A stretch of DNA of 64,000 nucleotides from Candidatus Omnitrophota bacterium (GCA_041667545.1 JBAYES010000001.1:5928-69927), one strand, 5' to 3'; positions 34,302 through 63,299 are shown, counted from the first letter of the stretch. Program-made: numbers and translations. The notes: generated by a model not told the origin, from the letters alone.

Positions 34302-35012
34302 ATGGACAAAAACATTAGAGAAGCTCAAAAAGAAGTTTTAAAGGTTTTTTCGCGGCATGCCCAAAATTTCGCGCTTTCCGGCGGAACGGCCTTAGAACTT
34401 TACTATCTGCATCACAGATTTTCAATTGATCTGGATTTTTTTTCTCCCGTATATGATGTGAAAGAGATAGACCTTCTGATCAAAGAGTTAAAGAAAGACC
34501 TAAAGACCGATATAAAATTGGAAAATGAACTCATGTCCGGGAATAAAGCAAAAGTTCGTTTTTATACGATGCCCATAAGTGATTCAGAAAAGACGTTGAA
34601 AATAGATTTTGTTGAAGACGTGATAGTAGATAAACCTGAAATTGAGAATTTTGAAGGTGTCAGAGTTTATGGGGCGCATAATATATATTTGCAAAAGGCC
34701 TCGGCCATTACGGGAACTCAGATAAACACAGACCACATAGGACGGGAGATCATGCAGGGCAGGGTGGAAGCCAGGGACGCATTCGATCTATATATGCTTT
34801 CAAAAAAAATAAGTCCGCTTCACGTGTTTTTAAAAAGTTCTCCGGGGTATATACAACGGGGGATAATTCAATGGTATAGAAGGTTCTCAAGAACAGATCT
34901 TAAGCTATCACTGCTTGACCTGGATATCTATTCAAGAACATTCGACTCAAAGGAAATGATAATTCATCTGGAAGAAGAAATAGAAAAATTCATGCAGGAA
35001 ACCATAATATGA
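34302..35012 (+). CDS. AbiEii-like nucleotidyltransferase (DUF1814 family)
   Basis: GGTALELYYLHHRFSIDLDFF matches the AbiEii N-terminal NTase motif. Confidence 0.55.
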   Translation: MDKNIREAQKEVLKVFSRHAQNFALSGGTALELYYLHHRFSIDLDFFSPVYDVKEIDLLIKELKKDLKTDIKLENELMSGNKAKVRFYTMPISDSEKTLKIDFVEDVIVDKPEIENFEGVRVYGAHNIYLQKASAITGTQINTDHIGREIMQGRVEARDAFDLYMLSKKISPLHVFLKSSPGYIQRGIIQWYRRFSRTDLKLSLLDLDIYSRTFDSKEMIIHLEEEIEKFMQETII

Positions 35013-35533
35013 GCAAAGCAAATTCATCATATTCAAAGTATTTCTGGGACCTGAACGAAAAAGCGCTCACGGAAACAGCGGATATCTTAAAGGATCCCGA
35101 TCATGAGAGATTTCAGCAGAGAATGGTCAGACTGCTTTCCCGCTGTCAGAGCCCGGAAGAGCTTTTTTCTGTAATTTCAAAAGACAACTTTGTCAAAGCT
35201 TGGCCTAAATTGAGCAGGTACTGGGCAAAAATAGAAAAAATCTCGGATTTCAGAGACTGGTGGCAGACAATATACGAGGAGATCCTGAGAAGACAAGGCA
35301 AGGCCACGAAGGCAATGGGAGAGCCTTCGGCGCTCTTTAAGAATATCGGGGCAAAGATCAGGGAAGCAAGGACAGAAAAGGAAATCAGCCAGAAAGATCT
35401 TGCTTTGGCGGTTGGAATGAAACAGCCCGATATTTCCAAGATCGAAGAGGGTAAAAAGAACATTACTCTTGAAACTTTAGCCCGAATATGTAAATATCTG
35501 GATATTCGAGAAATAGGGATAATCGGAAAATAG
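35009..35533 (+). CDS. XRE-family HTH protein with an unknown N-terminal domain
   Basis: C-terminal ISQKDLALAVGMKQPDISKIEEGKKNITLETLARICKYLDI helix-turn-helix. An ATGA start/stop overlap links it to the upstream NTase gene. Confidence 0.55.
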   Translation: MSKANSSYSKYFWDLNEKALTETADILKDPDHERFQQRMVRLLSRCQSPEELFSVISKDNFVKAWPKLSRYWAKIEKISDFRDWWQTIYEEILRRQGKATKAMGEPSALFKNIGAKIREARTEKEISQKDLALAVGMKQPDISKIEEGKKNITLETLARICKYLDIREIGIIGK

Positions 35534-35551
35534 TAGGAAAGGGGGACAGGC
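35456..35551 (+). repeat. 96-bp direct repeat, copy 1 (3' end of the XRE gene plus AGGAAAGGGGGACAGGC)
   Basis: About 96% identical to 37614-37709. Confidence 0.9.
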
Positions 35552-35605
35552 TACTTTTTATTCCTACAGTTCCCACAATATAAAAAGTTGCCTGTCCCCC
35601 TTTTT
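35541..35605. terminator. long-stem hairpin with a T-run on either strand (GGGGGACAGGC...GCCTGTCCCCC TTTTT)
   Basis: 11-bp perfect GC-rich stem, extendable to about 20 bp through ACTTTTTA/TAAAAAGT, followed by TTTTT. A T-run also follows on the - strand. Second copy at 38463-38523. Confidence 0.55.
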
Positions 35606-35694
35606 CACAACGAGCAACCCCGTACCACTCGCTTCGCTCGGGCACGGGTAGGCGAGCACCCAGCAACCTCTATGGGCGAGTCAACATTTTAACG

Positions 35695-36462
35695 TTGGCG
35701 AAACTATGGAAACATGATCGATCGACGAGGTGCATGTTGAATAAACCGGAACTTAAACAGTATTTAATGAGCGGTCAGTTCCTGAATGCTCTGTCCAGAC
35801 GGAAATATTTTAGCTTTGACGAGCTTTATGCCAAATTGTCGAAAAAGTATCCGGATTTAAAAAGAGTACAGCTATCTCGCTATATGTTTGATGTTGTTAA
35901 AAATGGAAAAATATATGGCGCCGGTCGAGGATGGTACTCTTTGATCAAAAGTCCTTTGACGGCAGAGCCGGAGTTTGTTCAAGAAATTGTGGATCTTCTG
36001 GCCAATGAGTATCCGCAAGTTGTTTTTTCCTGTTGGTCGACCAAACATATCCGGTCTTTTATGCATCACCTGCTTGCGAAATTTGTGACATTTGTTTATA
36101 CGCAGTGGGAAGCGATGGAGATGATGGGAGATTTTCTGGAATCGGAAGGATACAAGGTATGGGTCAATCCGCACGGGAAGGATATTGATCGTTTCCATGT
36201 GAATATGGAGAAAACCGTTGTTATTCGCCCATTGATTTCTCGTGTTCCGGTTAATGGCCATTTTGCGACATTTGAGAAAATTCTGGTCGATCTGGGGGTG
36301 GAGATCCGGCAGTTGCCTTTAATGGATGAGAGCGAATATGACACCTTGTTATCGAATGCTTTGACAGCCGGACGTGTGGATGTCGGAACTCTGATTAGTT
36401 ATGCCAAGAGGCGGCGGTTAAGTATTGACAAGACTGTATTCAATATTCGCAAGGCGTTATGA
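35695..36462 (+). CDS. AbiEi-like antitoxin/transcriptional regulator
   Basis: N-terminal region with a GAGRGWYSL motif typical of AbiEi-family wHTH domains. Sits immediately upstream of an AbiEii gene. Confidence 0.5.
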   Translation: MAKLWKHDRSTRCMLNKPELKQYLMSGQFLNALSRRKYFSFDELYAKLSKKYPDLKRVQLSRYMFDVVKNGKIYGAGRGWYSLIKSPLTAEPEFVQEIVDLLANEYPQVVFSCWSTKHIRSFMHHLLAKFVTFVYTQWEAMEMMGDFLESEGYKVWVNPHGKDIDRFHVNMEKTVVIRPLISRVPVNGHFATFEKILVDLGVEIRQLPLMDESEYDTLLSNALTAGRVDVGTLISYAKRRRLSIDKTVFNIRKAL

Positions 36463-36515
36463 ATTAAATCCACATTTATCAAAAGTGTGGATTTAATTCA
36501 TATAGGGAATCTTAT

Positions 36516-37592
36516 ATGATTGAAAACAGGTGTTTTACGGCATCGTGGATTGAGCAAAAAAGGCGCGAAATCGGGCGTGTTGATCCGGCTCTCTTGGAAA
36601 AAACCATATATGCGATGGCACTTCTTTGCGGGCTGGCCCGGTCAAAAATGCCTTTTGTCTTCAAGGGCGGGACCAGTTTGATACTGCTCATTAAGGACTT
36701 CCGCAGGCTTTCCATCGATGTCGATATCGTTGCCGATATTCCACGGTCAGAATATGAGGTGATTCTGGAGGAGATCGGGAAGACGGCTCCGTTTTTGGGC
36801 TACGTGGAGGATAAGCGCGGTGACCGCGGCTTGCCAAGGCGGACGCATTTTAAGTTTGCGTATCATTCAGTCGTTTCTAAGCGCAAGGATTATGTTTTGC
36901 TGGATATTCTGGAAGAGAAGAATATCTATCCGACAACAAAGATGGTTGCCATTGAGCCTTCATTTGTAGAAGTATCACGGCGAGTTTCCGTACGAATGCC
37001 GACAGCCGAATGTCTCTTGGGGGACAAGCTTACGGCATTTGCTCCGAATACGATAGGTGTTCCTTACGAAAGGAAGTCCGGAATGCAGATCATCAAGCAC
37101 TTGTTTGATATCGGGGAGCTTTTTGGAGTTGCCGAAGATATGAACATGGTAAGACGGGCGTATGAAGCAATCGCCAGAGCTGAGATCGGCTATAGAGAGA
37201 ACGCTTTTATTTTGGAAGAGGCATTGACGGATACTTTTAATACTGGCGTCAAAGTTTGTATGATGGGCATGAGAGGAGAAAGGGCGGGTCGGGAAGCGGA
37301 GGTCTTGCGGAAGGGAATTCAACGGGTTGAAAGCCATCTGGTTAATACGTTGTTCACACTGACAGAAGCTAGATTAGCGGCATCTCGGGCGATTCTGTTA
37401 TCCGCTTTGGTGAGAGAAAAAACAGACCGCAGAGGTCTGGGGGCTTTTCGTTGGAAGCCACAAGATGACGGGGGATTGGGTTCGCTTTCGCTAAACGGGG
37501 AATTGGAGAGACTGAACCGGATCAAGTTGATCTCTCCGGAAGCGTTTCATAATCTCCACACGGCCCAAGGCTTTTTAGTCGAGAAGATATGA
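36516..37592 (+). CDS. AbiEii-family nucleotidyltransferase toxin (type IV TA/Abi)
   Basis: FKGGTSLILLIKDFRRLSIDVDIV NTase motif and DUF1814-like length of 358 aa. Confidence 0.65.
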   Translation: MIENRCFTASWIEQKRREIGRVDPALLEKTIYAMALLCGLARSKMPFVFKGGTSLILLIKDFRRLSIDVDIVADIPRSEYEVILEEIGKTAPFLGYVEDKRGDRGLPRRTHFKFAYHSVVSKRKDYVLLDILEEKNIYPTTKMVAIEPSFVEVSRRVSVRMPTAECLLGDKLTAFAPNTIGVPYERKSGMQIIKHLFDIGELFGVAEDMNMVRRAYEAIARAEIGYRENAFILEEALTDTFNTGVKVCMMGMRGERAGREAEVLRKGIQRVESHLVNTLFTLTEARLAASRAILLSALVREKTDRRGLGAFRWKPQDDGGLGSLSLNGELERLNRIKLISPEAFHNLHTAQGFLVEKI

Positions 37593-50869: not shown

Positions 50870-51130
50870 ATGGAGATTAAGGCCAACGAAGTATATACCG
50901 CACAGGAAGCGCAAAAACTGCTAAAGGTAAGCCCGAGCACCACAATGCGTCTTATCAAGGGGGGGGTAATACGCGCCGCCAAGGTCGGAAAGCAGTATAG
51001 GATAATGGGAAAAGAACTTTTGCGTATCGTTTCGCCCCAGATCGAGGATAAAGTGGGCAAGATATACAACAAAGGCCGTCAGTGGGTCCATGAGGGCATT
51101 GATGACGATGAAACGTTAAAAAAGAGGTAA
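50870..51130 (+). CDS. small helix-turn-helix DNA-binding protein (excisionase/MerR-like HTH_17-type)
   Basis: YTAQEAQKLLKVSPSTTMRLIKGGVIRAAKVGKQYRI is an HTH pattern typical of excisionase-family DNA-binding domains. Confidence 0.5.
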   Translation: MEIKANEVYTAQEAQKLLKVSPSTTMRLIKGGVIRAAKVGKQYRIMGKELLRIVSPQIEDKVGKIYNKGRQWVHEGIDDDETLKKR

Positions 51131-51398: not shown

Positions 51399-52379
51399 AT
51401 GAAAGATATTTTTAAGAATAAGGTCGTTCTTGTTACCGGAGGGACAGGATCGTTTGGGAGGAAGATCACAGAGATAGTATTAAGGAATTGTAATCCGAGA
51501 AAACTTATTATTTTTAGCCGTGATGAAATGAAACAATACGAAATGCACAAGGAGTTCGACAGCGATATTTTAAGATATTTCGTGGGAGATGTAAGGGATG
51601 TGGACAGATTAAAACGAGCCATGAAAGGGGTGGACATAATTGTTCACGCAGCGGCTTTAAAAATTGTGCCTACTGCTGAGTATAATCCATTTGAGGCGGT
51701 AAAGACCAACGTGATAGGCGCAGAGAACATAATTAATGTTGCCATTGACAATGGAGTTGAAAAGGTGGTCGCATTGAGTACTGATAAGGCCACAAACCCC
51801 ATAAATTTGTACGGAGCCACGAAGTTATGCTCGGAAAAAATGTTCATTGCCGCGAATAATTATTCTACGGAAAAGGGAACTCATTTCAGCGTTGTAAGGT
51901 ACGGTAATGTTTTTGGTTCAAGGGGAAGCGTCGCTCCTTTTTTCAAGAGATGCCGGGCCAAAGGAGTGGTTCCCATAACTGACGAAAGAATGACACGGTT
52001 CGGGATAACTTTAACGGATGGGGTTAAATTTGTCATGCAGAGTATTGCGGATATGCAGGGGGGGGAGATCTTTATTCCCAAAATACCAAGCATGAAAGTT
52101 ACGGATCTTGCCGAAGCTATCTGTCCTGGATGTAAAAAAGAAATAATAGGAATAAGAGCTGGAGAAAAATTGCATGAAGCTCTGGTTCCGGCAGATGATG
52201 GAATTCATACTTACGAATACGAGGACAGGTATATAACATATCCTTACGTTGTGACCTATGGAGAAAGGAAGGATGGTGGTCGCCCTCTGGGCCCGGAGTT
52301 TGAAGGCTATCGAAGTGACAATAATTCTTTATGGCTTAGTGTTGAGGATTTAAGAAAGATGTCGGAGGAATATGCTTGA
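51399..52379 (+). CDS. UDP-N-acetylglucosamine 4,6-dehydratase, PseB/FlaA1/CapD-like
   Basis: KNKVVLVTGGTGSFGRK N-terminus and 326-aa length typical of PseB. Confidence 0.8.
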   Translation: MKDIFKNKVVLVTGGTGSFGRKITEIVLRNCNPRKLIIFSRDEMKQYEMHKEFDSDILRYFVGDVRDVDRLKRAMKGVDIIVHAAALKIVPTAEYNPFEAVKTNVIGAENIINVAIDNGVEKVVALSTDKATNPINLYGATKLCSEKMFIAANNYSTEKGTHFSVVRYGNVFGSRGSVAPFFKRCRAKGVVPITDERMTRFGITLTDGVKFVMQSIADMQGGEIFIPKIPSMKVTDLAEAICPGCKKEIIGIRAGEKLHEALVPADDGIHTYEYEDRYITYPYVVTYGERKDGGRPLGPEFEGYRSDNNSLWLSVEDLRKMSEEYA

Positions 52380-53619
52380 CGTGAATATCCCCTACGGAAA
52401 ACAGAATATCAGCGGCAAGGATACAAAGTCAGTAGACGCTGTCCTTCGCTCAGATTGGATAACTCAAGGATCCAAGGTGGGCGAATTCGAGGCCTGCCTT
52501 GCCAGATATTGCAACTCTAAATTCGCGGTTGCTGTTTCCAGCGGTACCGCAGCTTTGCATTTGGCCTGCCTGGCCGCCGGCATAGGTAAAGGTGACGAAG
52601 CCATAACGAGCCCGATAACTTTTCTTGCCACTCCTAATTCCGTGCTCTATACCGGCGCGAAACCAGTATTTTCTGACATAGATTACGAAACAGTCAATAT
52701 AAGCCCAGTTGAAATATCTAAAAATCTGACCCGGAGAACGAGAGTCATTCTCCCGGTACATTTTGCAGGATTACCCTGTAAAATGCCTGAGATATCAAAG
52801 ATCGCCAGGAAAAACAAGTTGATTGTCATAGAAGACGGATGTCACGCGTTAGGGGCCGAGTATAAGCATGGGAAGGAGTTGGTAAAGGTCGGGAGCTGCA
52901 GACATTCGCATATGACTGTTTTTAGTTTTCATCCAGTGAAACACATAACAACGGGTGAGGGCGGAGCCATAACCACCAACAGCAAGGAGCTGTACAAAAA
53001 ATTGTGTATGTTAAGAACACACGGGGTTTACAGGGACCAGAAGATGGCGAGAGCGCGGGGGGGCTGGTATTATGAGATGAGGTCTCTCGGGTTTAACTAC
53101 AGAATAACCGATTTTCAGTGTTCTTTGGGTATTTCTCAGATGGGAAGGATCGACAGATTTCTCTCGGAAAGAAGGAAAATGGCGGATGTTTATGACAAGG
53201 AGTTTTCAGGTATGGGTGAAGTGATAAGAATTCCAAATCAACGGGTTGACAGTGAAAGGCATGCCTATCATCTTTACCTTTTAAGGTTGAATCCGGAATA
53301 TATATTTTTCAGCGGTTCACCGCGCTGTTCAGCTTTTTCAGTAGCTGACAATGGCCGTAAGGTCGGATTGGAAAGGAATAGAGTTATTGACGAACTTATA
53401 GAAAAAGGGATTCGCGCTCAAGTACACTACATTCCTGTATACAAGCAGCCTTACTATCGTGAAAACGGTTACGGGAGGGTTAACTGCATATCCTCGGAAA
53501 AATATTTCAATGAAACGATCTCACTACCCATATACCCTGGACTCAGCACCGATCAACAGGGGTATGTCATAAAGAACGTGAAGAAAGCATTATGTGCGGC
53601 GGCAAAAAAAAGCAGGTAA
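52372..53619 (+). CDS. DegT-family aminotransferase (PseC-like)
   Basis: PLP-aminotransferase pattern including ...VFSFHPVKHITTGEGG. Lies immediately after the PseB-like gene. Confidence 0.8.
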   Translation: MLDVNIPYGKQNISGKDTKSVDAVLRSDWITQGSKVGEFEACLARYCNSKFAVAVSSGTAALHLACLAAGIGKGDEAITSPITFLATPNSVLYTGAKPVFSDIDYETVNISPVEISKNLTRRTRVILPVHFAGLPCKMPEISKIARKNKLIVIEDGCHALGAEYKHGKELVKVGSCRHSHMTVFSFHPVKHITTGEGGAITTNSKELYKKLCMLRTHGVYRDQKMARARGGWYYEMRSLGFNYRITDFQCSLGISQMGRIDRFLSERRKMADVYDKEFSGMGEVIRIPNQRVDSERHAYHLYLLRLNPEYIFFSGSPRCSAFSVADNGRKVGLERNRVIDELIEKGIRAQVHYIPVYKQPYYRENGYGRVNCISSEKYFNETISLPIYPGLSTDQQGYVIKNVKKALCAAAKKSR

Positions 53620-54541
53620 TTTGAATATATCCAGGTTCACTTTGGGTACGGCTCAGTTGGGATTGGATTACGGTATAGCCAATATTAACGGCAAGCCGGA
53701 TATTGTTAAGGCTCTTGAGATTCTCAATGCTGCCGTTGGATGTGGTGTCACAAGCTTTGATACTTCCTATTCGTATGGCGAAAGCGAGGAGATTCTGGGT
53801 TCTTTTATCGCGAAAAGGGCGGGAAAGGGCGAGGGCCTGTCTATAATATCGAAACTTCCTAAGATACTTCTCGGTGTGAGCCCTGCTCCGCAGATTGTAT
53901 ATAAGGAAGTGAAAAAATATGTGACGGAGTCCATAAAAAGACTGAATGTAGACACGATATCGGTGTATTTGATGCATGATGCTTCGGACATATGCTCTTA
54001 CGAAGGGAATGTTCTTAAGAGCTTGACAAAAATAAGGGAAGAAGGGCTCATAGGAACGGTAGGAGCCTCTTTTTATTATCCGGACGATGCGGAGAGGGTT
54101 CTCGATGTGGACGATATAGGCGCAGTACAGGTCCCTGTTAATCTGATGGACCATAGATTCATCAGGAACGGACTTATGTCAAGATTATCCCGAAAGGGCA
54201 AGATCGTTTTTGCCAGAAGTGTATTCTTGCAGGGCTTGTTCTTCATGGACCATGAAGAACTATCTGAAAAAATGTGTCATGTGAAACCATATTTGCGCAA
54301 GGCCGTCAGCCTGGCAGGGGAACATAATCTTGGAATGGACGAACTGGCGATGGGGTTTGTGAATAGCATTCCGGGTATCTCATCTTTCGTAATAGGGGCA
54401 GATAATGCGACCCAGGTTCTGCGTAATAGTGAGCTGATCGATAATCCCCCGATGGACAGCCAGTTGTATGGCAAGATATCGGGGCATTTTGCATATGTTC
54501 CGGAAAAGGTGACAATACCTATTTTTTGGGGGAAGGAGTGA
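53594..54541 (+). CDS. aldo/keto reductase family oxidoreductase
   Basis: FTLGTAQLGLDYG N-terminus and D..Y..GESE AKR-like motifs. Confidence 0.65.
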   Translation: MRRQKKAGNLNISRFTLGTAQLGLDYGIANINGKPDIVKALEILNAAVGCGVTSFDTSYSYGESEEILGSFIAKRAGKGEGLSIISKLPKILLGVSPAPQIVYKEVKKYVTESIKRLNVDTISVYLMHDASDICSYEGNVLKSLTKIREEGLIGTVGASFYYPDDAERVLDVDDIGAVQVPVNLMDHRFIRNGLMSRLSRKGKIVFARSVFLQGLFFMDHEELSEKMCHVKPYLRKAVSLAGEHNLGMDELAMGFVNSIPGISSFVIGADNATQVLRNSELIDNPPMDSQLYGKISGHFAYVPEKVTIPIFWGKE

Positions 54542-54543
54542 AT

Positions 54544-55335
54544 ATGGGTATAAAAGAAATGTTCAGCCTTGAGGGTAAAGTCGCGATAGTTACAGGTGGA
54601 GCGGGCCACATAGGTTCGGCCATTAGTGAGATTTTAGCGACAGCAGGCGCTAAAGTGGTTATCGCCGGGTTAGATTCGGAAAAATCTAAAAAGAAGGCCG
54701 GAGAGATCATTAAAGAATGTGGCGAAGGATGTTCGGGAATAACAATGGATATTGCTTCTCCTCAAAAAGTAAGAAAAGCCATGAGAACAATAGCAGAGGA
54801 TTTCGGAGGGATAGATATCCTGGTTAATAACGCATATTTTGGAGGTCGCGGAAGTATCGAAGACATTTCCGACAAGAATTGGGAGAAGGGTATAGATGGG
54901 ACCATCAACTCTGTTTTTAGATGTTCGCAGTCTGTCATCCAACACATGGAAAAAAGAAAAGGCGGTTCGATAATTAACATATCGTCGATATATGGAATGG
55001 TTTCTCCGGACCCGTCAATATATGGAGGGACCGATTATCATAATCCTCCGAACTATGGCGCGGGAAAAGCCGCGATAATACAATTTACACGTTTTGGGGC
55101 GTGTCATCTGGCCGGAAAAAATATAAGAATGAATTGCGTTACTCCGGGGGCATTCCCGAACAAGGAAGTGCAAAAGGACGTAAAGTTCATATCAAAGCTT
55201 GAAAAAAAGATCCCTGCGGGCAGGATAGGATTACCCCGCGATATCAAGGGGGCTGTTCTATTTCTGGCATCAGAGGCGTCTTCATATGTCACAGGCGTTA
55301 ATTTAGTAGTAGATGGGGGGTGGACAGCTTGGTGA
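54544..55335 (+). CDS. SDR-family short-chain dehydrogenase/reductase
   Basis: VAIVTGGAGHIGSAI (TGxxxGxG), NNAY and YxxxK (YGAGKAA). Start at ATG 54544, after the previous stop. Confidence 0.8.
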   Translation: MGIKEMFSLEGKVAIVTGGAGHIGSAISEILATAGAKVVIAGLDSEKSKKKAGEIIKECGEGCSGITMDIASPQKVRKAMRTIAEDFGGIDILVNNAYFGGRGSIEDISDKNWEKGIDGTINSVFRCSQSVIQHMEKRKGGSIINISSIYGMVSPDPSIYGGTDYHNPPNYGAGKAAIIQFTRFGACHLAGKNIRMNCVTPGAFPNKEVQKDVKFISKLEKKIPAGRIGLPRDIKGAVLFLASEASSYVTGVNLVVDGGWTAW

Positions 55336-56033
55336 CGGGCAGTGAAAAGAAAGTGGCCGGGATCATACAGGCACGTATGTCCTCAAGAAGGCTCCCGGGT
55401 AAGGTAATGATGGATCTATCCGGCAAGACTTTGCTTTCGCGCGTTATAGACAGGACAAGAGCGGCAAAAAGGATTGACTCTATATGTGTGGCGACTTCCG
55501 CTTTCCCGGAAGATGATGTTATTGAAATAGAGGCACGCAGGAATGATGTTGAGGTATTCAGGGGAGACCTAGATAATGTTCTGATGAGATATTGCGGGGC
55601 TGCAGATTATATGGGGGCGGATTATGTATTAAGGATAACGGGAGATAACCCTCTTACGGAACCAAGTTTTATAGATATGTGCTCGGATAAGATATTAAAT
55701 GAAGATCTTGATTATGTTTTTGTGAGTGATGTGCCTTACGGCTCTGGCGCTGAAGCGATTTCGAGAAGAGCTTTGTTCGAGGCTTTGGCAAAAGCTGATA
55801 GCAAAGAAAAAGAACATGTGACCATGTACTTGTACAAGAACCCGGAAGATTTCAAAAATTCAACGATAGAACCACCACCCTGGTTAAGGAGGCCGGATAT
55901 CAGACTGACCATTGATACTCCGAAAGATTATATTTTTCTGAGAAAAGTATTTTCATATTTTTACGAGAAAGGTATTTCAAACATCGGGCTAAGAGCCGTC
56001 ATCGAACTTATCGACGAGATAGGGGGGGCTTGA
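55320..56033 (+). CDS. CMP-nonulosonic acid cytidylyltransferase-like protein (SpsF/PseF/NeuA family, CTP_transf_3)
   Basis: VAGIIQARMSSRRLPGKVM matches the acylneuraminate cytidylyltransferase N-terminal motif. The true start may be an internal GTG. Confidence 0.7.
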   Translation: MDSLVTGSEKKVAGIIQARMSSRRLPGKVMMDLSGKTLLSRVIDRTRAAKRIDSICVATSAFPEDDVIEIEARRNDVEVFRGDLDNVLMRYCGAADYMGADYVLRITGDNPLTEPSFIDMCSDKILNEDLDYVFVSDVPYGSGAEAISRRALFEALAKADSKEKEHVTMYLYKNPEDFKNSTIEPPPWLRRPDIRLTIDTPKDYIFLRKVFSYFYEKGISNIGLRAVIELIDEIGGA

Positions 56034-56800
56034 TGGTGAACTTGGGATTGAAACTGTGGTCCGATAACGACGAATATATGCCCCATGCAGAAGAATTGTA
56101 TAGGGAAGGGTATTATGATTTTATAGAGCTATATGCGGTTCCAGGGACATCAAAAGAATATCTGGATAGATGGAAGAGTCTGGGAGTCAAATTTGTTATA
56201 CATGCGCCGCATTCTTTTCATGGGTTCAATCTTGCGGACTCTGGCAGAGCTGGTCGTAATAAGGTATTGTTTGAAGAAGCAAGGCGGTTCGCCGATGGCC
56301 TTGCCGCGGAACATATAGTCGTGCATCCCGGGGTGTTAGGTACGGAGGATGCGGTATTTGAGCAGTTAAAAGTCTTTGGCGACAGCAGGGTATTGCTGGA
56401 GAATATGCCTTATAGGGCTTTAGACAAGGGGATCTGCGCGGGTCATGATCCGGAACGAGTTAGAGACCTTGTCTCGTCATGCCATATAGGTTTTTGTCTG
56501 GACATAGCCCATGCCAGCAATTACGCTATCAACTTTGGGTGGGATTATTGCGATGTGCTTGAGGAGTTTATGTGTATAGAACCCAAATTGATACATATGT
56601 GTGGAATAGATATTTCTTCTGAGACCGACAGCCACTTGCATTTAAAGGATAGCCAGGTTAGTATGGATGAAATAGGAGCGATAATAAGAGGTTCCGGGGT
56701 AAAAAGATGTACGTTGGAGACCCCGAAGGATTCTCGAATCAATCTTGATGATTTCAAAGAAGAAATTTCAACGGCGCGAAAAATTTTGGGCGGATCATGA
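56030..56800 (+). CDS. TIM-barrel sugar phosphate isomerase/epimerase-like protein (xylose isomerase-like fold)
   Basis: Length and dispersed His/Glu/Asp pattern are compatible with the AP-endonuclease-2/xylose-isomerase-like TIM barrel. Assignment is weak. Confidence 0.4.
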   Translation: MMVNLGLKLWSDNDEYMPHAEELYREGYYDFIELYAVPGTSKEYLDRWKSLGVKFVIHAPHSFHGFNLADSGRAGRNKVLFEEARRFADGLAAEHIVVHPGVLGTEDAVFEQLKVFGDSRVLLENMPYRALDKGICAGHDPERVRDLVSSCHIGFCLDIAHASNYAINFGWDYCDVLEEFMCIEPKLIHMCGIDISSETDSHLHLKDSQVSMDEIGAIIRGSGVKRCTLETPKDSRINLDDFKEEISTARKILGGS

Positions 56801-57870
56801 TAAAAAAAATAGAGGTAGCTGGTCGCGTGATAGGGGATGGGTTTAAAACTTTCATAATAGCGGAGGCCGGAGCTAATTGGAAATACTGCAGAGATATGGA
56901 TCTTAATTATAAACACGCGATCAAGCTTATTAATATCGCCGCAGATTCGGGCGCGGATGCCGTTAAGTTCCAGGTGTACAGAGCCGCAAAGCTGTATGTT
57001 AAGTCAGCTGGTCACGCGGGTTACATAGGCAAGAATAAACCGATATACGATATCATTAAGGATATGGAAATACCCTATGAGTGGATACCGGAATTGAAGG
57101 ATCGATGTGATAAAAGAGGGATAGTTTTTCTTGCTACTCCGTTTGATGAAGAGTCGGTCATTGTACTTGAGAAGGCGGCGATAGAACTTTATAAGATAGC
57201 GTCGTATACTATTTCTCATCTACCCCTTGTCGAGATGATAGCGAGGCTCAACAAGCCTATCATTTTGTCTACCGGGGCATCCAACATTGCCGATATAGAC
57301 AGGGCACTTGAGACCGTGTCAAAATGGGGTAATGACAGGATTGCTCTTATGCAATGCACGGCCCGATATCCCGCATCGCTTGAGACCATTAATTTAAGAG
57401 TCATAAGTACTCTGAAAAATAAATATGATATTCCGGTAGGGCTTTCTGACCATTCCAGAAATCCAATTGTAGCGCCTCTCGGCGCGGTGAGTATCGGGGC
57501 AAATATCTTGGAAAAGCATTTCACAACTGACAATTCTTTGGATGGTCCGGATCATGGGTTTGCCCTGCTTCCAGAAGAGTTCAAGATGATGGTGGATTAT
57601 ATCAGAATGATGGAACGGGCGATTGGTAGTGGGGTCAAGGAGATCCAGAAGGAAGAAGAAGAATTGCATGGATTTTGCAGAAGGAAAATATATGCTGTAA
57701 AAGACATTTTACAAGGTGAATCTTTCTCGGAGGACAATATCGGGGTTTTGCGGAGTGGTCACGCTGCTAAAGGGCTGGATCCTCTGGAATATGGAAACGC
57801 GATCGGGAAAAGAGCAAGAATCCGTATTAAGGCAGGTGATCCTATAACCAAGGAAGTTCTGGATGAATGA
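56797..57870 (+). CDS. nonulosonic acid synthase (NeuB/PseI/SpsE family)
   Basis: FIIAEAGANW...AADSGADAVKFQ NeuB motif plus a C-terminal SAF (antifreeze-like) domain. Confidence 0.85.
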   Translation: MIKKIEVAGRVIGDGFKTFIIAEAGANWKYCRDMDLNYKHAIKLINIAADSGADAVKFQVYRAAKLYVKSAGHAGYIGKNKPIYDIIKDMEIPYEWIPELKDRCDKRGIVFLATPFDEESVIVLEKAAIELYKIASYTISHLPLVEMIARLNKPIILSTGASNIADIDRALETVSKWGNDRIALMQCTARYPASLETINLRVISTLKNKYDIPVGLSDHSRNPIVAPLGAVSIGANILEKHFTTDNSLDGPDHGFALLPEEFKMMVDYIRMMERAIGSGVKEIQKEEEELHGFCRRKIYAVKDILQGESFSEDNIGVLRSGHAAKGLDPLEYGNAIGKRARIRIKAGDPITKEVLDE

Positions 57871-60121
57871 TTACGGGTTATCTTTCCGGCCGGCTGTCAG
57901 GGAAGATTGTTCCCTGTTTCATATGTGGAGGAATGAGAGTATTGTCCGGGATCGTTCTTTTTCGGGTGATATGATAGGTTTAGAGGAGCATAAAGAATGG
58001 TTTGAGAAAAAATTGATCGATGGTAATTGCAAAATGTTCGTTTTGCAGAGAAACAGCATCCCACTTGGGCAGGTCAGGTTTGACATTTTAGGAAAGAAAG
58101 CCGAAATAAGCCTGTCTATTTCGAGTGAGTATAGAGGCATGTCATATGGCAAAAGAAGTATCAGAATGATGTCGGATTACATACTACGCAGTGGTATTGC
58201 TGACAGAGTGGTTGCGTATGTAAAGGAGGGGAACAAGTCTTCATTGGGAGCTTTCAGATCCTCGGGGTATACGGTATTGAACGAGAATATCATAGTCAAG
58301 GGGCAGAAGGCGATTGAGCTAGAGTACTCAGAGGAAGGCAGGCGGACCAGGCCCATCAAGTATCTTGCTACGACATCTCTTAAGCAAATATGGGAGAAGG
58401 AAAGAGATATTGTTTTGCTGGGGCCTTGGTGTTTTGATGGAGAGACGTATGAGGGCGAACCCTCCTCTATTGCCCTATCTCTGGCAAAAGATATAAAATA
58501 TACTACTGAGAACCTGATACCAAATGCGAATTATTGTGAGAAAGTTTACGGGGAGCTGATAGGTGAAATGACGGCTGTTATGAACGCTGTGCACGATGTC
58601 CAGGAGAGCGTCGATTACTGGGCAATTGTTCTTAACCCCTGGCTTGTTTTTCATATTTGCATGATGCATGAAAAATACACCAGGATATTGAAAGTTCAGA
58701 ACGAGCATAAGGATGGACTATATACTCATACGGTGGAACCCGACGAGAATCTAGCTCCGATGGATACCCGGGAGTTTCTTTTCAATAAGGTCGGAGATCC
58801 TGTCTATAACTTGCAGTTATTTTCTCAAATTATTAAAGCATCTGGGATGAACCATCATAAAGCAGAGAAATTTAGTCCTCTTCGCCCGGAGACGGGCTAT
58901 AGTCGTTGGGGGGAAGCCTTGAACTCAGTCAAAATTTTCGTTAAACGTATGTTTTATAAAAGTCTGTCGGCTTTTCTCGCAGAAAGCGATGTTGTCATGA
59001 CCGACATGTATCACATCGATTTTTGGGACTGCGTTCATTTAAGTCTGGCTACAGGATCGGCAATTTGTTTGGATACTATTTTTCCATGCCGGCGTACCGA
59101 AATATTTGATTATGATAAAGAACTCAGAGGAAAGATGAAAATGGCGAAAGGGGATGACCCTTTTGTGAATGTATTAAAGGAAAGCATCATATACTCCATG
59201 CCTCGTTGTTATGTTGAGGGATACGCTTATGTCTCGGGGCGAGTGAACGATATCAAGAGAAAAAAACCACATTTTATTATATCCGCGATAGGGTGGTACT
59301 TTAATGAAATGTTTAAGTTTTATGCGGCTCGAATGAAGAGCAAAGGCAGCAAGTTAGTAGGTGTTCAACATGGCGGGGATTACGGCTACAGTCTTTACCA
59401 ATCGGCGTTCATTTTTGAGCTGAAAAACAAAGACATGTTCTTCAGTTGGGGGTGGGGAAAAGGTATGGATAAGATAAAGGCGCTTCCCAATCCACATCTT
59501 TCCAGGATCAAGAATACATACTCGAATAGGGGGGACGGGATCCTCTATATATCTACCAATTATCCAAAACATTTTTTCTCTTTGTTGAGCTATCCTGGTA
59601 CCGAAGGGATGGAAATGTATTTCGAACAACAATTTTCTTTTTTGAAAAAAATGCCTTCTCGTCTGACCGGAAAATTGTACTATCGTTCTTACCCGACGGA
59701 TTACGGCAGGAGGATAAAAGACAGGGTAAAAATGATGAATCCTTCGATCAGGTGGGCCGACAAGTCCAGGAGTTTTCAGTGGATGAGGCGATCTAGACTA
59801 GTCGTATTGGATCACCCCGGGACATCCTTTGTGGAAGCCATGGTGGTGAACGTGCCATTGATACTTTTCTATAGCAGGGAATTATGGGCTATGTCACCTT
59901 ATGCAGAGAGTCTTTTTGATGCGATGAGGAGTAAAGGTATTGTTCAACCCAATCCTGATTCTGCTGCGGTTAAACTGGATGAAGTCTATGATAATGCTCG
60001 TGAATGGTGGAAGGATAGGCAGATACAAAAGATCAGAGAAGAATTTATTGAAAGCTATGGATATTCCCGGAAAAACTGGAGGGATATATGGGCCAAAGAA
60101 ATACGTTTATTGAAAGACTAA
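57863..60121 (+). CDS. fusion protein: N-terminal GNAT acetyltransferase (PseH-like) plus a C-terminal domain of about 580 aa and unknown function
   Basis: First roughly 170 aa have a GNAT layout (...RNESIVRDRSF... NCKMFVLQRNSIPLGQVRF...). The remaining 580 aa match no motif I recognise with confidence. Confidence 0.55.
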   Translation: MNDYGLSFRPAVREDCSLFHMWRNESIVRDRSFSGDMIGLEEHKEWFEKKLIDGNCKMFVLQRNSIPLGQVRFDILGKKAEISLSISSEYRGMSYGKRSIRMMSDYILRSGIADRVVAYVKEGNKSSLGAFRSSGYTVLNENIIVKGQKAIELEYSEEGRRTRPIKYLATTSLKQIWEKERDIVLLGPWCFDGETYEGEPSSIALSLAKDIKYTTENLIPNANYCEKVYGELIGEMTAVMNAVHDVQESVDYWAIVLNPWLVFHICMMHEKYTRILKVQNEHKDGLYTHTVEPDENLAPMDTREFLFNKVGDPVYNLQLFSQIIKASGMNHHKAEKFSPLRPETGYSRWGEALNSVKIFVKRMFYKSLSAFLAESDVVMTDMYHIDFWDCVHLSLATGSAICLDTIFPCRRTEIFDYDKELRGKMKMAKGDDPFVNVLKESIIYSMPRCYVEGYAYVSGRVNDIKRKKPHFIISAIGWYFNEMFKFYAARMKSKGSKLVGVQHGGDYGYSLYQSAFIFELKNKDMFFSWGWGKGMDKIKALPNPHLSRIKNTYSNRGDGILYISTNYPKHFFSLLSYPGTEGMEMYFEQQFSFLKKMPSRLTGKLYYRSYPTDYGRRIKDRVKMMNPSIRWADKSRSFQWMRRSRLVVLDHPGTSFVEAMVVNVPLILFYSRELWAMSPYAESLFDAMRSKGIVQPNPDSAAVKLDEVYDNAREWWKDRQIQKIREEFIESYGYSRKNWRDIWAKEIRLLKD

Positions 60122-60136
60122 CCCTGGAGGATAGAG

Positions 60137-61366
60137 ATGAGATATTGTAAAAGGTGTGTATATCCGGAGTCGTCCGCTGTAAAGCTTACGTTTGATGAGA
60201 GGGGAATATGCAGTGGATGCAGAGTTGCTGAAGAAAAAGAAAAACTGGATTGGGGTGAGCGTGAAAAACAATTGAGAAAGATCCTAGAGTCATATAAGGG
60301 ACAGGCAGAATATGACTGTATAATTCCGGTGTCAGGTGGCAAGGATAGTCACTATCAGGTGTATCTGATAAAAGAAGTTTATGGCCTAAACCCTCTTCTG
60401 GTGACATTTAACCACACTTTTAATACGAGGCTGGGAATAGATAATCTTACGAACCTTGTTGAAAAATTTGGTTGCGATCACTTAAGGTTTACGCCCAGTC
60501 CTAAAACAGTGAAAAAGCTTGCCAGGGTTGCTCTCAAAAAGATGGGGGACTTTTGCTGGCATTGTCATTGTGGTATTTTTACCTATCCCGTTCAGGTAGC
60601 CGTGAAATATCGGATACCTTTATTGATATGGGGGGAACAGGGTTTCTTAGACTTAGGGGGTATGTTTTCGCATTACGATATGATTGAAATGACGAGGAGG
60701 TTCAGGACGGAGCATGGTCTCAGGGGATACGACTATTCCGATTTGATCGACGAGAAAGAGGGGATAACGGCAGAAGACTTGAGGTGGGCGGTATATCCTT
60801 CAGATAAGGATATCGAGCGTGTGGGGGTCAGGGGCATTTATCTTGGTAATTTTGTTAATTGGAACGGAAAAAAACAGACGGAGTTTTTAATAAAAAATTA
60901 TAATTTTCAGACGGCTCGTGAATCAAGAAGTTACAATACCTACGAAAACGTCGAATGTCATCATTGTGGTGGTGCCCATGACTATCTCAAATGGCTTAAA
61001 TTTGGCTATGGCAGGGCCACAGATCATGCGTCGCAAGATATACGTTTGGGTAGGATGACGAGAGAGGAGGGTGTTGATATGGTTGAGAAATACGACGCGA
61101 AACGTCCAAATGACCTAGATCCGCTTCTTGATTGGCTGGAGATAAGTGAGGAAGAATTTGTCGAGGCCGTTGATGGGATGAGGGATCCGCGCGCGTGGAA
61201 AAAAGAGAACGGCAAGTGGATATTGCAAGATCATGTGAGAAATCACCGGAACGATCCTGGAGTAGAGGAGGTAAGGGTGCCTCTTGATGAAGAAAAACGA
61301 AAAACGAGAGAATATGTTCTGACATGTCCAAGAGGTAAGTTCGCCGATGGATATGTCAGGATGTGA
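60137..61366 (+). CDS. N-acetyl sugar amidotransferase (WbuX/PseA-like, PP-loop ATPase)
   Basis: N-terminal CKRCVYPESS...CSGC zinc ribbon and PP-loop PVSGGKDSHYQ. Followed by HisH/HisF homologs. Confidence 0.8.
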   Translation: MRYCKRCVYPESSAVKLTFDERGICSGCRVAEEKEKLDWGEREKQLRKILESYKGQAEYDCIIPVSGGKDSHYQVYLIKEVYGLNPLLVTFNHTFNTRLGIDNLTNLVEKFGCDHLRFTPSPKTVKKLARVALKKMGDFCWHCHCGIFTYPVQVAVKYRIPLLIWGEQGFLDLGGMFSHYDMIEMTRRFRTEHGLRGYDYSDLIDEKEGITAEDLRWAVYPSDKDIERVGVRGIYLGNFVNWNGKKQTEFLIKNYNFQTARESRSYNTYENVECHHCGGAHDYLKWLKFGYGRATDHASQDIRLGRMTREEGVDMVEKYDAKRPNDLDPLLDWLEISEEEFVEAVDGMRDPRAWKKENGKWILQDHVRNHRNDPGVEEVRVPLDEEKRKTREYVLTCPRGKFADGYVRM

Positions 61367-61385
61367 AATATTACATCATTTTATG

Positions 61386-62003
61386 AAGACGCTTGTAGTT
61401 GATTACAACATAGGAAATTTGCAGTCCATGGTTAATGCTCTGAAAATGGTCGGAGGTGATGTGATAGTTTCTAACAAGGGGGAAGATTTTGAAAAGGCTT
61501 CACATATAGTTTTGCCAGGTGTCGGAGCGTTTGGGGAAGGTATGAAGAATCTTGAAGCCCTGGGGTTGATCGAATTACTGCACAAACATGTGATCGAGAA
61601 AAAAAAGCCATTTTTAGGTGTATGTTTGGGAATGCAGCTTATATGTGGATATAGCTGTGAGGGGGGAGATTACAAAGGCCTTGGGTGGGTTACCTCTAAA
61701 GTCCAATACCTGGGGCAGGGTATAACGGGATTGTTGATTCCACATGTAGGATGGAATGACGTTGTCCCGAGGGATAAAAGTGTTTTATTTCCCGATCCGC
61801 TGAAAACCTATGTGTTTTACTTTGTTCACAGCTACCACTGCGAGTCAGAATCGCAAGATGTTGTTAGTTCGGAATGTTTCTACGGACGCAAATTCACCGC
61901 AAGCTTTGAACATGAAAATATTTTTGCCACGCAGTTTCATCCAGAAAAAAGTCAGCTTTTGGGGTTAGAGTTGTTAGGTAACTTTTTAAATTATCGTTTT
62001 TGA
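61386..62003 (+). CDS. glutamine amidotransferase subunit, HisH-like (WbuY-type)
   Basis: LVVDYNIGNLQSMVNAL...VLPGVGAFG...GVCLGMQL catalytic Cys and a HxxE C-terminus. Start at ATG 61386. Confidence 0.8.
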   Translation, partial: KTLVVDYNIGNLQSMVNALKMVGGDVIVSNKGEDFEKASHIVLPGVGAFGEGMKNLEALGLIELLHKHVIEKKKPFLGVCLGMQLICGYSCEGGDYKGLGWVTSKVQYLGQGITGLLIPHVGWNDVVPRDKSVLFPDPLKTYVFYFVHSYHCESESQDVVSSECFYGRKFTASFEHENIFATQFHPEKSQLLGLELLGNFLNYRF

Positions 62004-62019
62004 TTGCAGGGAAACATAT

Positions 62020-62862
62020 ATGCTTAAAAAAAGGCTTATTGCCGTACTTCTCCTGAAGAACGGGCATCTGGTCAAAACTAGGAATTTTGATAATTTTCAG
62101 ATAATTGGTAGTCCTTTGCAGTCCATCGAGAGGTTCAATTCATGGGCAGTTGATGAAATATTGCTGCTGGATTTGAGTACAGAAAAATTTTACGACCACG
62201 AAAGATATGATTGTGGATATGAGAACCCGGATTCTATTGAGGGTATAATCTCATACCTTTCAAGATCTTGTTTTGTCCCGCTTGCGGTTGGAGGGGGAAT
62301 ACACAATATTGAAGATATTAAACAGCGCCTTAAATTTGGCGCGGATAAAGTAGTTATAAATACGCAGGCATTCAATGCTCCCGGTTTTATTGTCGAAGCA
62401 GCGAAGATGTTCGGGAAACAGTGCATAGTGGTATCGATAGATGTTAAGTTTGGCAGCGGCGGAAGGCCAACCGTTCATGTGGCGCATGGTAATAAGGATA
62501 CAGGACTTGATCCGGTAGTATGGGCTAAAGAAGTTGAAACATTTGGTGCCGGGGAAATTTTGCTTAACTCTGTAGACAGGGATGGCACTATGTCTGGATA
62601 TGACCTTGATCTAATAAGATCCGTCACCGAAAATGTAGATATACCAGTTATCGTTTGTGGTGGGGCAGGGGAATGGAGCCATTTTGTTGATGCTATTAAT
62701 CTTGGCCAAGCTTCGGCCGTTGGAGCTGCTAATATTTTCTATTTCAGGGAACAGAGTACACGAATAGCGAAGAAATATATGAAAGCTTCCGGTATCAATG
62801 TGCGTTTCGCCGAGGATTTTGAGAAATTTATAAACATTAAGAATAATCAGGCCACACGGTGA
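62020..62862 (+). CDS. cyclase subunit, HisF-like (WbuZ-type)
   Basis: HisA/HisF TIM-barrel pattern (...VPLAVGGGI..., ...IVVSIDVK..., ...GAGEILLNSVDRDGT...). Confidence 0.8.
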   Translation: MLKKRLIAVLLLKNGHLVKTRNFDNFQIIGSPLQSIERFNSWAVDEILLLDLSTEKFYDHERYDCGYENPDSIEGIISYLSRSCFVPLAVGGGIHNIEDIKQRLKFGADKVVINTQAFNAPGFIVEAAKMFGKQCIVVSIDVKFGSGGRPTVHVAHGNKDTGLDPVVWAKEVETFGAGEILLNSVDRDGTMSGYDLDLIRSVTENVDIPVIVCGGAGEWSHFVDAINLGQASAVGAANIFYFREQSTRIAKKYMKASGINVRFAEDFEKFINIKNNQATR

Positions 62863-63299
62863 GGAACGATTTGTCATTTTTAAAGTTCATAAAACAAATA
62901 TTTTGGCGGACACCCGGGAAGTTCATTTTTATCGTTATTTTTATAATCCTGGCTGGTATGCTTGAAGGTGTGGGGTTTACGCTTTTTTCAAATCCTTTTA
63001 TACGGCATATCATTAATACTTTACGACTGGTGGAAAGGACTCATTGGTTTAAATTGCAGGAGGTTTTTGACGAGCTGGCATATCTATTAAAAGCTTTATC
63101 ATTCGAAGGGATATGTTCAGATTGCCGCGACGCACTCAAAGAAAAGTTCCTGATATTCGCTGATATAGATAGGTTTTATAAGAACTGGATATCAGGAGGA
63201 CTTGCCATGGATCAAAACATAGTAGACGGGTATATGGATATAGTAGATAGGGTTTTGTTGAACGGCGCCGAGGAGTGCGCGGGAGTACTGCATGGATAA
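62859..63299 (+). CDS. hypothetical protein
   Basis: 146-aa ORF with an N-terminal hydrophobic segment, co-directional and overlapping with its neighbours. No recognised family. Confidence 0.4.
   Translation: MRNDLSFLKFIKQIFWRTPGKFIFIVIFIILAGMLEGVGFTLFSNPFIRHIINTLRLVERTHWFKLQEVFDELAYLLKALSFEGICSDCRDALKEKFLIFADIDRFYKNWISGGLAMDQNIVDGYMDIVDRVLLNGAEECAGVLHG

Follow-up and report, generated by a model that had tools for sequence, protein, structure and literature searches.

Few transferases are known that attach pseudaminic acid (Pse), legionaminic acid (Leg) or other nonulosonic acids to glycans outside the flagellum, and these belong to a handful of types: Maf, FlmG and the TagB-like enzymes of Tannerella forsythia (PMC5420450). 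Among the last, BFO_1060, Tanf_01245 and TFUB4_00887 are genetically validated transferases of Pse or Leg derivatives that carry HP motifs (PMC5420450). WbbB (GT99) and KpsC (GT107) are GT-B-like cytidine monophosphate (CMP)-beta-Kdo transferases and use a CMP-activated ulosonic acid. A further family, founded on Leptospira interrogans LIC12162, is named a transferase by its NCBI curators. Here we examine a 64,000-nucleotide stretch of DNA from a Candidatus Omnitrophota bacterium (GCA_041667545.1 JBAYES010000001.1:5928-69927), called the window below, in which a single open reading frame (ORF) of 752 amino acids (aa) joins an N-terminal GNAT domain to a LIC12162-family domain. In our judgement the chances are about even that the LIC12162 domain is a glycosyltransferase (GT) dedicated to the nonulosonate of the surrounding gene cluster, with a donor that is most probably a CMP-sugar. 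On this reading, the ORF specifies an enzyme with two modules that works in a surface-glycan pathway of the pseudaminic-acid (nonulosonate) type. Its parts are as follows, with residues numbered in the 752-aa protein:

57863..60121, + strand: the whole ORF, GNAT joined to LIC12162-family domain, ATG start, 752 aa

57878..58270, + strand: GNAT N-acetyltransferase domain, PseH-like, residues 6-136 (PF13302, PF00583)

58310..58363, + strand: inter-domain linker, residues ~150-167 (...LEYSEEGRRTRPIKY...), of low model confidence, where the two genes of a relative (locus L128) stop and start

58364..60100, + strand: LIC12162-family domain, residues 168-746, predicted divergent GT-B fold (TIGR04331, PF27859, structure model)

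58418..58432, + strand: LGPWC motif, residues 186-190, after the first beta-strand, with C190 invariant in the family (alignments A1 and A2)

59366..59377, + strand: almost invariant QHGG motif (residues 502-505), located on a loop that follows a strand in the C-terminal Rossmann half (alignments, model)

59810..59836, + strand: D650-H-P-G-T654-S-F-V-E658, a nucleotide-binding-type motif of the C-terminal Rossmann half, with D, T and E conserved (alignments)

A preliminary description of this DNA had placed the 752-aa ORF directly after a NeuB-family synthase gene and given it a GNAT N-terminus and a Trp/Tyr-rich, soluble remainder without an assignable motif. The ORF was found with an ATG start, the GNAT was recovered, and the C-terminal ~585 aa contain 2.7% Trp and 6.1% Tyr (Trp is 0.2-2.2% in 16 other window proteins) and no transmembrane-like segment (maximum 19-residue Kyte-Doolittle hydropathy 1.35); the peptides quoted in that description lie at residues 186, 258 and 499. 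The lack of an assignable motif did not hold. A Pfam scan of the whole ORF returned nothing beyond the GNAT, and the NCBI model TIGR04331 ('LIC12162 family transferase') matched residues 168-746 from end to end (374.4 bits, cutoff 225, E 1.1e-111, profile positions 1-584 of 585), so that a guess at a LIC12162-type protein proved correct. PF27859, from a newer Pfam, is precomputed on an identical protein, P0001. Among 1.84 billion cluster representatives, searched exhaustively with HMMER at a threshold of E<=1e-30, 1,374 belonged to the family, which at 50% identity has ~1,400 clusters or more. A word-indexed protein search to enlarge the family produced no new members, a search of a plasmid collection gave no match, and a genome scan with a tighter alignment, A3, found 3 loci. 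The window protein resembles the rest of the family in matching the whole model, in its invariant residues and in having nonulosonate genes as neighbours, as is usual for the family, but differs in bearing an N-terminal GNAT, since nearly all of the best 150 representatives are stand-alone proteins of ~590 aa.

The family-invariant motifs LGPWC, N..H, YxEGY, QHGG, WGW, YR, D.P.T..E and WW, taken from two family alignments (A1, and A2 with 82 sequences), are all present in the window protein. In hhalign comparisons, QHGG was paired with the xHG motif of TagF-like neighbours (25% probability) and the D650..E658 motif with the GGxT..E motif of PseG (24% probability); we treat both pairings as leads rather than evidence. 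A sialyltransferase-type HP motif at D650-H-P was considered and rejected, because H651 is replaced by Tyr or Asn in P0014, P0002, P0015 and P0016.

A full-length model of the protein built from 9 sequences had a pLDDT (predicted local distance difference test) of 72, with values below 50 in the linker, and a second one, limited to residues 160-752 and based on 82 sequences of the family, reached a pLDDT of 94 and a predicted TM-score (pTM) of 0.94. In the model, two Rossmann-like alpha/beta halves are separated by a cleft and carry ~230 aa of helical insertions. Structure prediction followed by a Foldseek search was the check that the preliminary description had proposed, and against the PDB it returned solely GT-B-superfamily proteins at probability 1.0. 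These included SenB (E 4.8e-6), the GT4 enzymes WaaG, BshA and 6eji, glycogen synthases, MurG, and many UDP-N-acetylglucosamine (UDP-GlcNAc) 2-epimerases such as MnaA, with target-normalised TM-scores of 0.42-0.54. On these models, residues 168-746 are predicted to form a divergent GT-B fold. The LIC12162 profile found no sequence relative of the family in the PDB, and a Pfam scan of 82 members at E<=1 showed no recurrent GT family, with 3 weak Glyco_trans_1_2 matches. An earlier suggestion that the domain might be Maf-like fell on both counts, since MAF_flag10 (PF01973) had no match in the protein or in the 82 family members, and the predicted fold is GT-B.

To evaluate the genomic setting of the family, metagenome contigs were sampled solely by the back-translated motif FQHGGGYG. 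Of the loci obtained, 39 were strong LIC12162 loci, and 65 that had matched by chance served as controls. For the comparison we used LIC12162 loci flanked by 5 kb or more (n=22) and control loci of 7 kb or more (n=30). NeuB and/or CTP_transf_3 genes were present in 13/22 of the LIC12162 loci (59%) and 1/30 of the controls (3%), and PseG in 6/22 and 0/30, respectively. The nearest NeuB or CTP_transf_3 gene was 0.9-8 kb from the LIC12162 ORF. Independently of this sample, the LIC12162 gene adjoins NeuB or CTP_transf_3 in L004-L007 and L011. In 37 loci, 138 same-strand neighbours that had no other assignment were also scanned with Pfam; the 25 families listed in this census were dominated by radical-SAM (S-adenosylmethionine) proteins (25, of which 16 were B12-dependent), SAM methyltransferases (~24), 4,6-dehydratases/epimerases (10), Wzx-type flippases (9) and carbamoyltransferases (6). 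No classical GT family was among the 25, and therefore LIC12162 is usually the sole GT-fold protein alongside heavily tailored nonulosonate modules. A family that is large, structurally distinct within GT-B, tightly and specifically linked to nonulosonate genes and independent of PseG is thus a concrete and cheap transferase candidate.

In the mechanism that we propose, the cleft that separates the two Rossmann halves of module 2 (residues 168-746) would bind a nucleotide-activated sugar. Conserved candidates for this site are QHGG 502-505, R608 and D650/T654/E658, with C190, H244 and E452 on the N-terminal side. The module would add the nonulosonic acid, most probably with CMP-nonulosonate as donor, to a glycan under construction that is probably carried on a lipid. 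Donors of this kind, CMP-Pse5Ac7Ac and CMP-Pse5Am7Ac, can be prepared with enzymes (PMC7910423). Neither PseG nor any nonulosonate transferase of another known type is encoded in the 64-kb window.

Several observations weigh against a nonulosonate transferase. A predicted GT-B fold, taken alone, is compatible with a glycosyltransferase and also with a hydrolase or epimerase of nucleotide sugars, and UDP-GlcNAc 2-epimerases (NeuC, LegG family) match the model as well as true GTs do, with target-normalised TM-scores of ~0.5. The CMP-sugar transferases show no preferential match: WbbB is among the fold matches, but weakly (E 1.6e-3, TM-score 0.2), and no conserved HP motif is common to WbbB, KpsC and the LIC12162 domain, in which the HP is not conserved. 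The N-terminal half of LIC12162 proteins is also unusually conserved for a glycosyltransferase that meets diverse acceptors, and the validated Tannerella Pse/Leg transferases are of a different, TagB-like type (PMC5420450). Full-text literature searches for LIC12162 or TIGR04331 found no functional study and one in-passing annotation, in a Herbaspirillum genome paper; broader literature searches gave nothing on the family, and no characterised member was found. At the other end of the protein, the GNAT scored 30.8 bits with the PseH model TIGR03585, under the equivalog cutoff of 93.1. Finally, a TagB-like neighbour, described below, could be the actual CMP-nonulosonate transferase in L001, L009 and L008.

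The conservation of the N-terminal half and the epimerase matches also speak for a tailoring enzyme that would hold the nucleotide-activated nonulosonate or its UDP-sugar precursor in a GT-B cleft and, instead of glycosylating a glycan, modify it, for example by epimerisation or by transfer of a non-sugar group. Consistent with this, LIC12162 genes are embedded among tailoring genes (radical SAM/B12, methyltransferases, carbamoyltransferases), and fusions are seen only with tailoring enzymes, a GNAT in the window protein and P0014 and a SAM methyltransferase in P0118. However, a tailoring role has no precedent in the LIC12162 family, glycosyltransferases for rare sugars are commonly encoded within the biosynthetic module of the sugar itself, and the curators' name for the family is transferase. 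We consider a tailoring function quite unlikely.

The TagB-like neighbour raises the possibility that the LIC12162 domain is a glycosyltransferase of the same glycan that does not transfer the nonulosonate, but uses a UDP-sugar donor and adds the next or preceding residue or acts as a polymerase or terminator, while the TagB-like protein would serve as the CMP-nonulosonate transferase. In L001 (22 kb around the P0014 gene) and L009, the LIC12162 gene is followed 3' by an MsbA/PglK-like ATP-binding cassette (ABC) exporter gene and then by a gene for a ~450-aa protein. A related ~450-aa protein is encoded upstream of PseG in L008, ~6 kb upstream of the LIC12162 gene. These proteins carry HPRY...PLSS motifs and match PF04464 (TagF-like), KpsC (E 0.09), TIGR04326 and the BFO_1060-family model (29.5 bits) weakly. 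In Tannerella, genetic evidence shows that proteins of the TagB-like type transfer Pse and Leg (PMC5420450), a TIGR04326-type protein directly adjoins the LIC12162 gene (Hsc_4298) in Herbaspirillum, and the top structural matches of the LIC12162 domain are UDP-sugar enzymes. The window protein resembles Tanf_01245 and TFUB4_00887 (PMC5420450) in the function that we propose for it, and in being a soluble, GT-B-type protein encoded with nonulosonate genes, but theirs is a TagB-like sequence with HP and D/E-D/E-G motifs, and the BFO_1060-family model (NF046086) has no match in the window protein. What resembles the Tannerella type is a neighbour that the window has lost. Both the ABC exporter and the TagB-like gene, intact in L001 and L009, are missing here and leave a remnant:

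62859..63299, + strand: 146-aa deletion remnant, the first ~50 codons of the MsbA-like ABC exporter gene joined to the last ~70 codons of the TagB/TagF-like gene

The methyltransferase gene 3' of the remnant starts at 63292, is 67% identical to its L001 counterpart and continues past the window end. Since the fusion gene has stayed intact with all its invariant residues, its function is independent of the deleted ABC and TagB-like neighbours. TagB-like genes were found in 0/39 loci by hidden Markov model search, and neither they nor other GT families recurred across the 37 independent loci of the census, whereas NeuB and cytidylyltransferase genes do recur as LIC12162 neighbours. A glycosyltransferase acting on another residue therefore seems unlikely to us, as it is the LIC12162 gene that the window lineage kept and the TagB-like gene that was deleted.

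The setting of the ORF bears on another suggestion of the preliminary description, that the domain might be the hydrolase missing from the pathway. Judged by its neighbours, the ORF lies inside a Pse-type nonulosonate cluster, as that description had proposed, in which PseB and PseC exceed their equivalog cutoffs:

51399-52379, + strand: PseB, above equivalog cutoff

52372-53619, + strand: PseC, above equivalog cutoff

53594-54541, + strand: aldo-keto reductase (AKR)

54526-55335, + strand: PtmA-like short-chain dehydrogenase/reductase (SDR)

55320-56033, + strand: SpsF/KdsB-type cytidylyltransferase

56030-56800, + strand: xylose-isomerase-like TIM barrel (PF01261)

56797-57870, + strand: NeuB-family synthase

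60137-61366, + strand: WbuX-type amidotransferase

61347-62003, + strand: HisH-like protein

62020-62862, + strand: HisF-like protein

The co-oriented block upstream of the fusion ORF (51399..57870, + strand) is collinear in L001, L128 (a 7.8-kb contig with the P0002 gene), L129 and L009, and the nearest relatives of the block are in Candidatus Omnitrophota metagenome-assembled genomes (MAGs). WbuX, HisH and HisF (60137..62862, + strand) are an acetamidino-forming trio, which also lies 3' of the stand-alone LIC12162 gene in L008. Because of these three downstream genes, the sugar is probably a Pse-type one with an acetamidino group.

No PseG homologue was detected in the 64-kb window, in L001 or in the L128 contig. 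This would be explained if the LIC12162 domain were itself the PseG-type UDP-sugar hydrolase, fused to PseH so as to couple consecutive steps. PseG is a GT-B protein, PseG-PseH fusions are known elsewhere (P0011, P0012), and the C-terminal Rossmann motif of the LIC12162 domain was aligned with that of PseG by hhalign. Nevertheless, we regard this role as highly improbable, because a true PseG co-occurs with LIC12162 in 14 loci (L005, L006, L008, L009, L011, L129 and 8 metagenome loci). Three of them belong to the closest subfamily, which consists of six loci (the window, L001, L128, L129, L009 and L008), and encode stand-alone LIC12162 proteins that are 40-45% identical, together with a true PseG (TIGR03590 scores are 105-113 bits for L009 and L011):

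L129: PseB, PseC, AKR, SDR, cytidylyltransferase, PseG, ..., NeuB, LIC12162

L009: PseB, PseC, AKR, SDR, cytidylyltransferase, PseG, AMP-ligase, hexapeptide acyltransferase, radical SAM, NeuB, LIC12162

L008: PseG, NeuB, ..., LIC12162, WbuX, HisH, HisF

All six loci contain LIC12162, and in all six its gene follows NeuB, or NeuB and the GNAT. PseG without a GNAT or TIM barrel is found in 3 of them, and the TIM barrel with a GNAT in the other 3. The slot after the cytidylyltransferase is occupied by the TIM barrel in L001 (8155-8940) and L128 (2038-2808) and by PseG in L129 (4439-5335) and L009 (4461-5447). In addition, LIC12162 occurs in a cluster without PseB or PseC (L004). The domain shares with PseG, NeuC and LegG the predicted GT-B fold and a similar C-terminal nucleotide-binding motif, but it has no match to their sequence families (none to TIGR03590, with hhalign similarity to PseG confined to the C-terminal Rossmann half), is ~230 aa larger, and accompanies PseG instead of replacing it. 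From its position, the TIM barrel at 56030-56800 is a better candidate for the UDP-sugar-cleaving step, as a putative non-orthologous replacement of PseG. Its orthologue in L128 has a weak similarity to CbiR, a phosphodiesterase (33.4 bits, E 3.1e-8). A strict anticorrelation of PseG and TIM barrel across the whole family was considered and rejected, as L011 has both, and the alternation is valid only within the closest subfamily. In the PseG homologue of L008 (3803-4879), the GxGH loop reads GMGAL, with Ala for the conserved His, and this protein may be inactive or work differently.

Taken together, LIC12162 may be a large family of CMP-nonulosonate GTs, without a Pfam GT match or a PDB sequence relative, that serves as the dedicated installer of heavily tailored Pse/Leg-type sugars in uncultured phyla, and PseG may have been displaced here by a xylose-isomerase-like, CbiR-like TIM-barrel phosphodiesterase or hydrolase. 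We advance this combination only tentatively, as a possibility on the doubtful side. If both were true, they would define a non-canonical pseudaminic-acid pathway in which the PseH step is physically tethered to the transferase. The TIM barrel found at the PseG position in the GNAT clusters of the closest subfamily is a testable lead in a well-studied virulence-sugar pathway, and it is this swap and the family as a candidate nonulosonate transferase, not the fusion, that make the locus of interest.

The GNAT domain matched PF13302 with 36.4 bits (cutoff 25.4) and PF00583 with 30.4 bits (cutoff 20.7). PseH was its best NCBIfam match outside LIC12162, and was the top match outright for the separate GNAT of L128 (35.0 bits). 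In the PDB, the GNAT is closer to SpeG (E 2.7e-7) than to PseH of Campylobacter jejuni (4xpk, E 0.002). The pyrophosphate loop that binds acetyl-CoA in these enzymes follows the pattern R/Q-x-x-G-x-G/A. In the window protein it reads R91-G-M-S-Y-G96, with Ser at the usual Gly, and P0014 has the same variant, R-G-R-S-Y-G. The GNAT is the sole N-acetyltransferase of the block and is encoded together with PseB, PseC and PseI; in sister clusters of the PseG type, a hexapeptide acyltransferase or an ATP-grasp system takes its place. Like C. jejuni PseH, it has a GNAT fold and a PseB/PseC/NeuB setting, but unlike PseH it is fused to another domain, in addition to its low equivalog score and SpeG-type affinity. 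On sequence and gene context, the GNAT is most likely the PseH-role enzyme of the pathway. Module 1 (residues ~1-150) would then carry out the acetyl-CoA-dependent N-acetylation of the UDP-4-amino-4,6-dideoxy sugar produced by PseB and PseC. The claim that PseH-like GNATs normally stand alone was only roughly true, as the nearest relatives of this one are fused to PseG (P0011, P0012) or to PseI (NeuB) (P0010, P0013). In those proteins, too, a GNAT is joined to an enzyme of the same pathway, but it is C-terminal and its partner is PseG or NeuB, whereas the window GNAT is N-terminal and its partner is LIC12162. Many other clusters with LIC12162 (L005, L006, L011, L018, L061, L073, L096, L098) have no GNAT, and a WbqC-family (PF08889) gene adjoins NeuB, often with a PIG-L deacetylase, which suggests that such clusters use a different N-acyl remodelling route for nonulosonates.

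The frequency of the fusion was counted among the best 150 of the 1,374 family representatives and in the 39 metagenome loci. Whether the fusion is conserved, a check that had also been proposed, received a divided answer. It recurs in P0014, whose locus (L001) has the same block of eight genes as the window (PseB, PseC, AKR, SDR, cytidylyltransferase, TIM barrel, NeuB, GNAT::LIC12162), but P0014 was the sole GNAT-sharing protein among the 150, and none of the 39 metagenomic family ORFs (0/39) was long enough to be a further fusion. The closest relative of the C-terminal domain, P0002 (50% identity), comes from a Candidatus Omnitrophota MAG with an identical block (L128), in which two separate genes, abutting but in different frames, encode a GNAT of 161 aa and a LIC12162 protein of 593 aa, the TAG stop of the first overlapping the GTG start of the second (gcaTAGTGggg). 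The linkers of the two fused lineages are unrelated (SEEGRRTRPI in the window, GKGRSGISGGRT in L001). Given the two separate genes of the closest relative and these unlike linkers, we conclude that the fusion arose by joining, in frame, two abutting genes whose translation is coupled; such a join is readily made and readily lost. In its architecture the protein is a rare variant within a family that is known but uncharacterised. The fusion carries no deep mechanistic meaning and adds little, since the functional link between GNAT and LIC12162 that it confirms was already implied by the adjacency of their genes. Two other long family members were noted: P0118 (921 aa; L011 10001-12766), in which LIC12162 is followed by a C-terminal SAM methyltransferase, and P0082 (1224 aa; L012 1681-5355), whose second half has only a weak match to DUF6716 'putative glycosyltransferase'.

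The NeuB-family gene (56797..57870) lies directly 5' of the fusion ORF, and its stop overlaps the ORF start by 8 nt (ATGAATGA). The identical protein P0001, from JGI data, was called 36 aa shorter, from Met37 (716 aa), and this start removes the first beta-strands of the GNAT (window 57863-57970, + strand). The 752-aa start is favoured because the Pfam match begins at residue 6, the P0014 alignment begins at residue 5, and the ATGAATGA overlap joins the ORF to the NeuB stop. The orthologue P0014 (752 aa, 43% identical) aligns over residues 6-744. The fusion is not an assembly artefact, since P0001 is identical in the JGI data and P0014 was assembled independently in three samples.

The cytidylyltransferase at 55320-56033 is the sole one of the 64-kb window, scores 19.6 bits with the PseF model, and is always accompanied by the genes for AKR and SDR. 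L001 (2690-3385), L008 and L011 also have a different, PseF-like gene that the window lacks. Either the SpsF/KdsB-like enzyme doubles as the CMP-nonulosonate synthetase, or PseF is encoded elsewhere in the genome.

The major genes of the window are all on the + strand. Housekeeping genes (miaB, miaA, hflX, hrcA-grpE-dnaK-dnaJ) are followed by a ~45-kb surface-glycan region that contains an LptD-like gene, Ugd, RmlABCD, Gmd, a carbamoyltransferase, three GT2 genes, a Wzy-like gene and four GT-C/YfhO-type membrane proteins. In mid-cluster, an insertion at 34302-37592 (+ strand) carries AbiEii-type nucleotidyltransferase toxin genes (34302-35012, 36516-37592) and a DUF6577 gene (35695-36462), and has a G+C content of 0.41, compared with ~0.46. 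The nonulosonate block is bordered upstream by an 86-aa ORF (50870-51130, + strand) with PseB on one side and a methyltransferase gene on the other. By eye, its product resembles a small helix-turn-helix (excisionase-like) DNA-binding protein, and the ORF could be a sign of a boundary between modules or of a junction with a mobile element.

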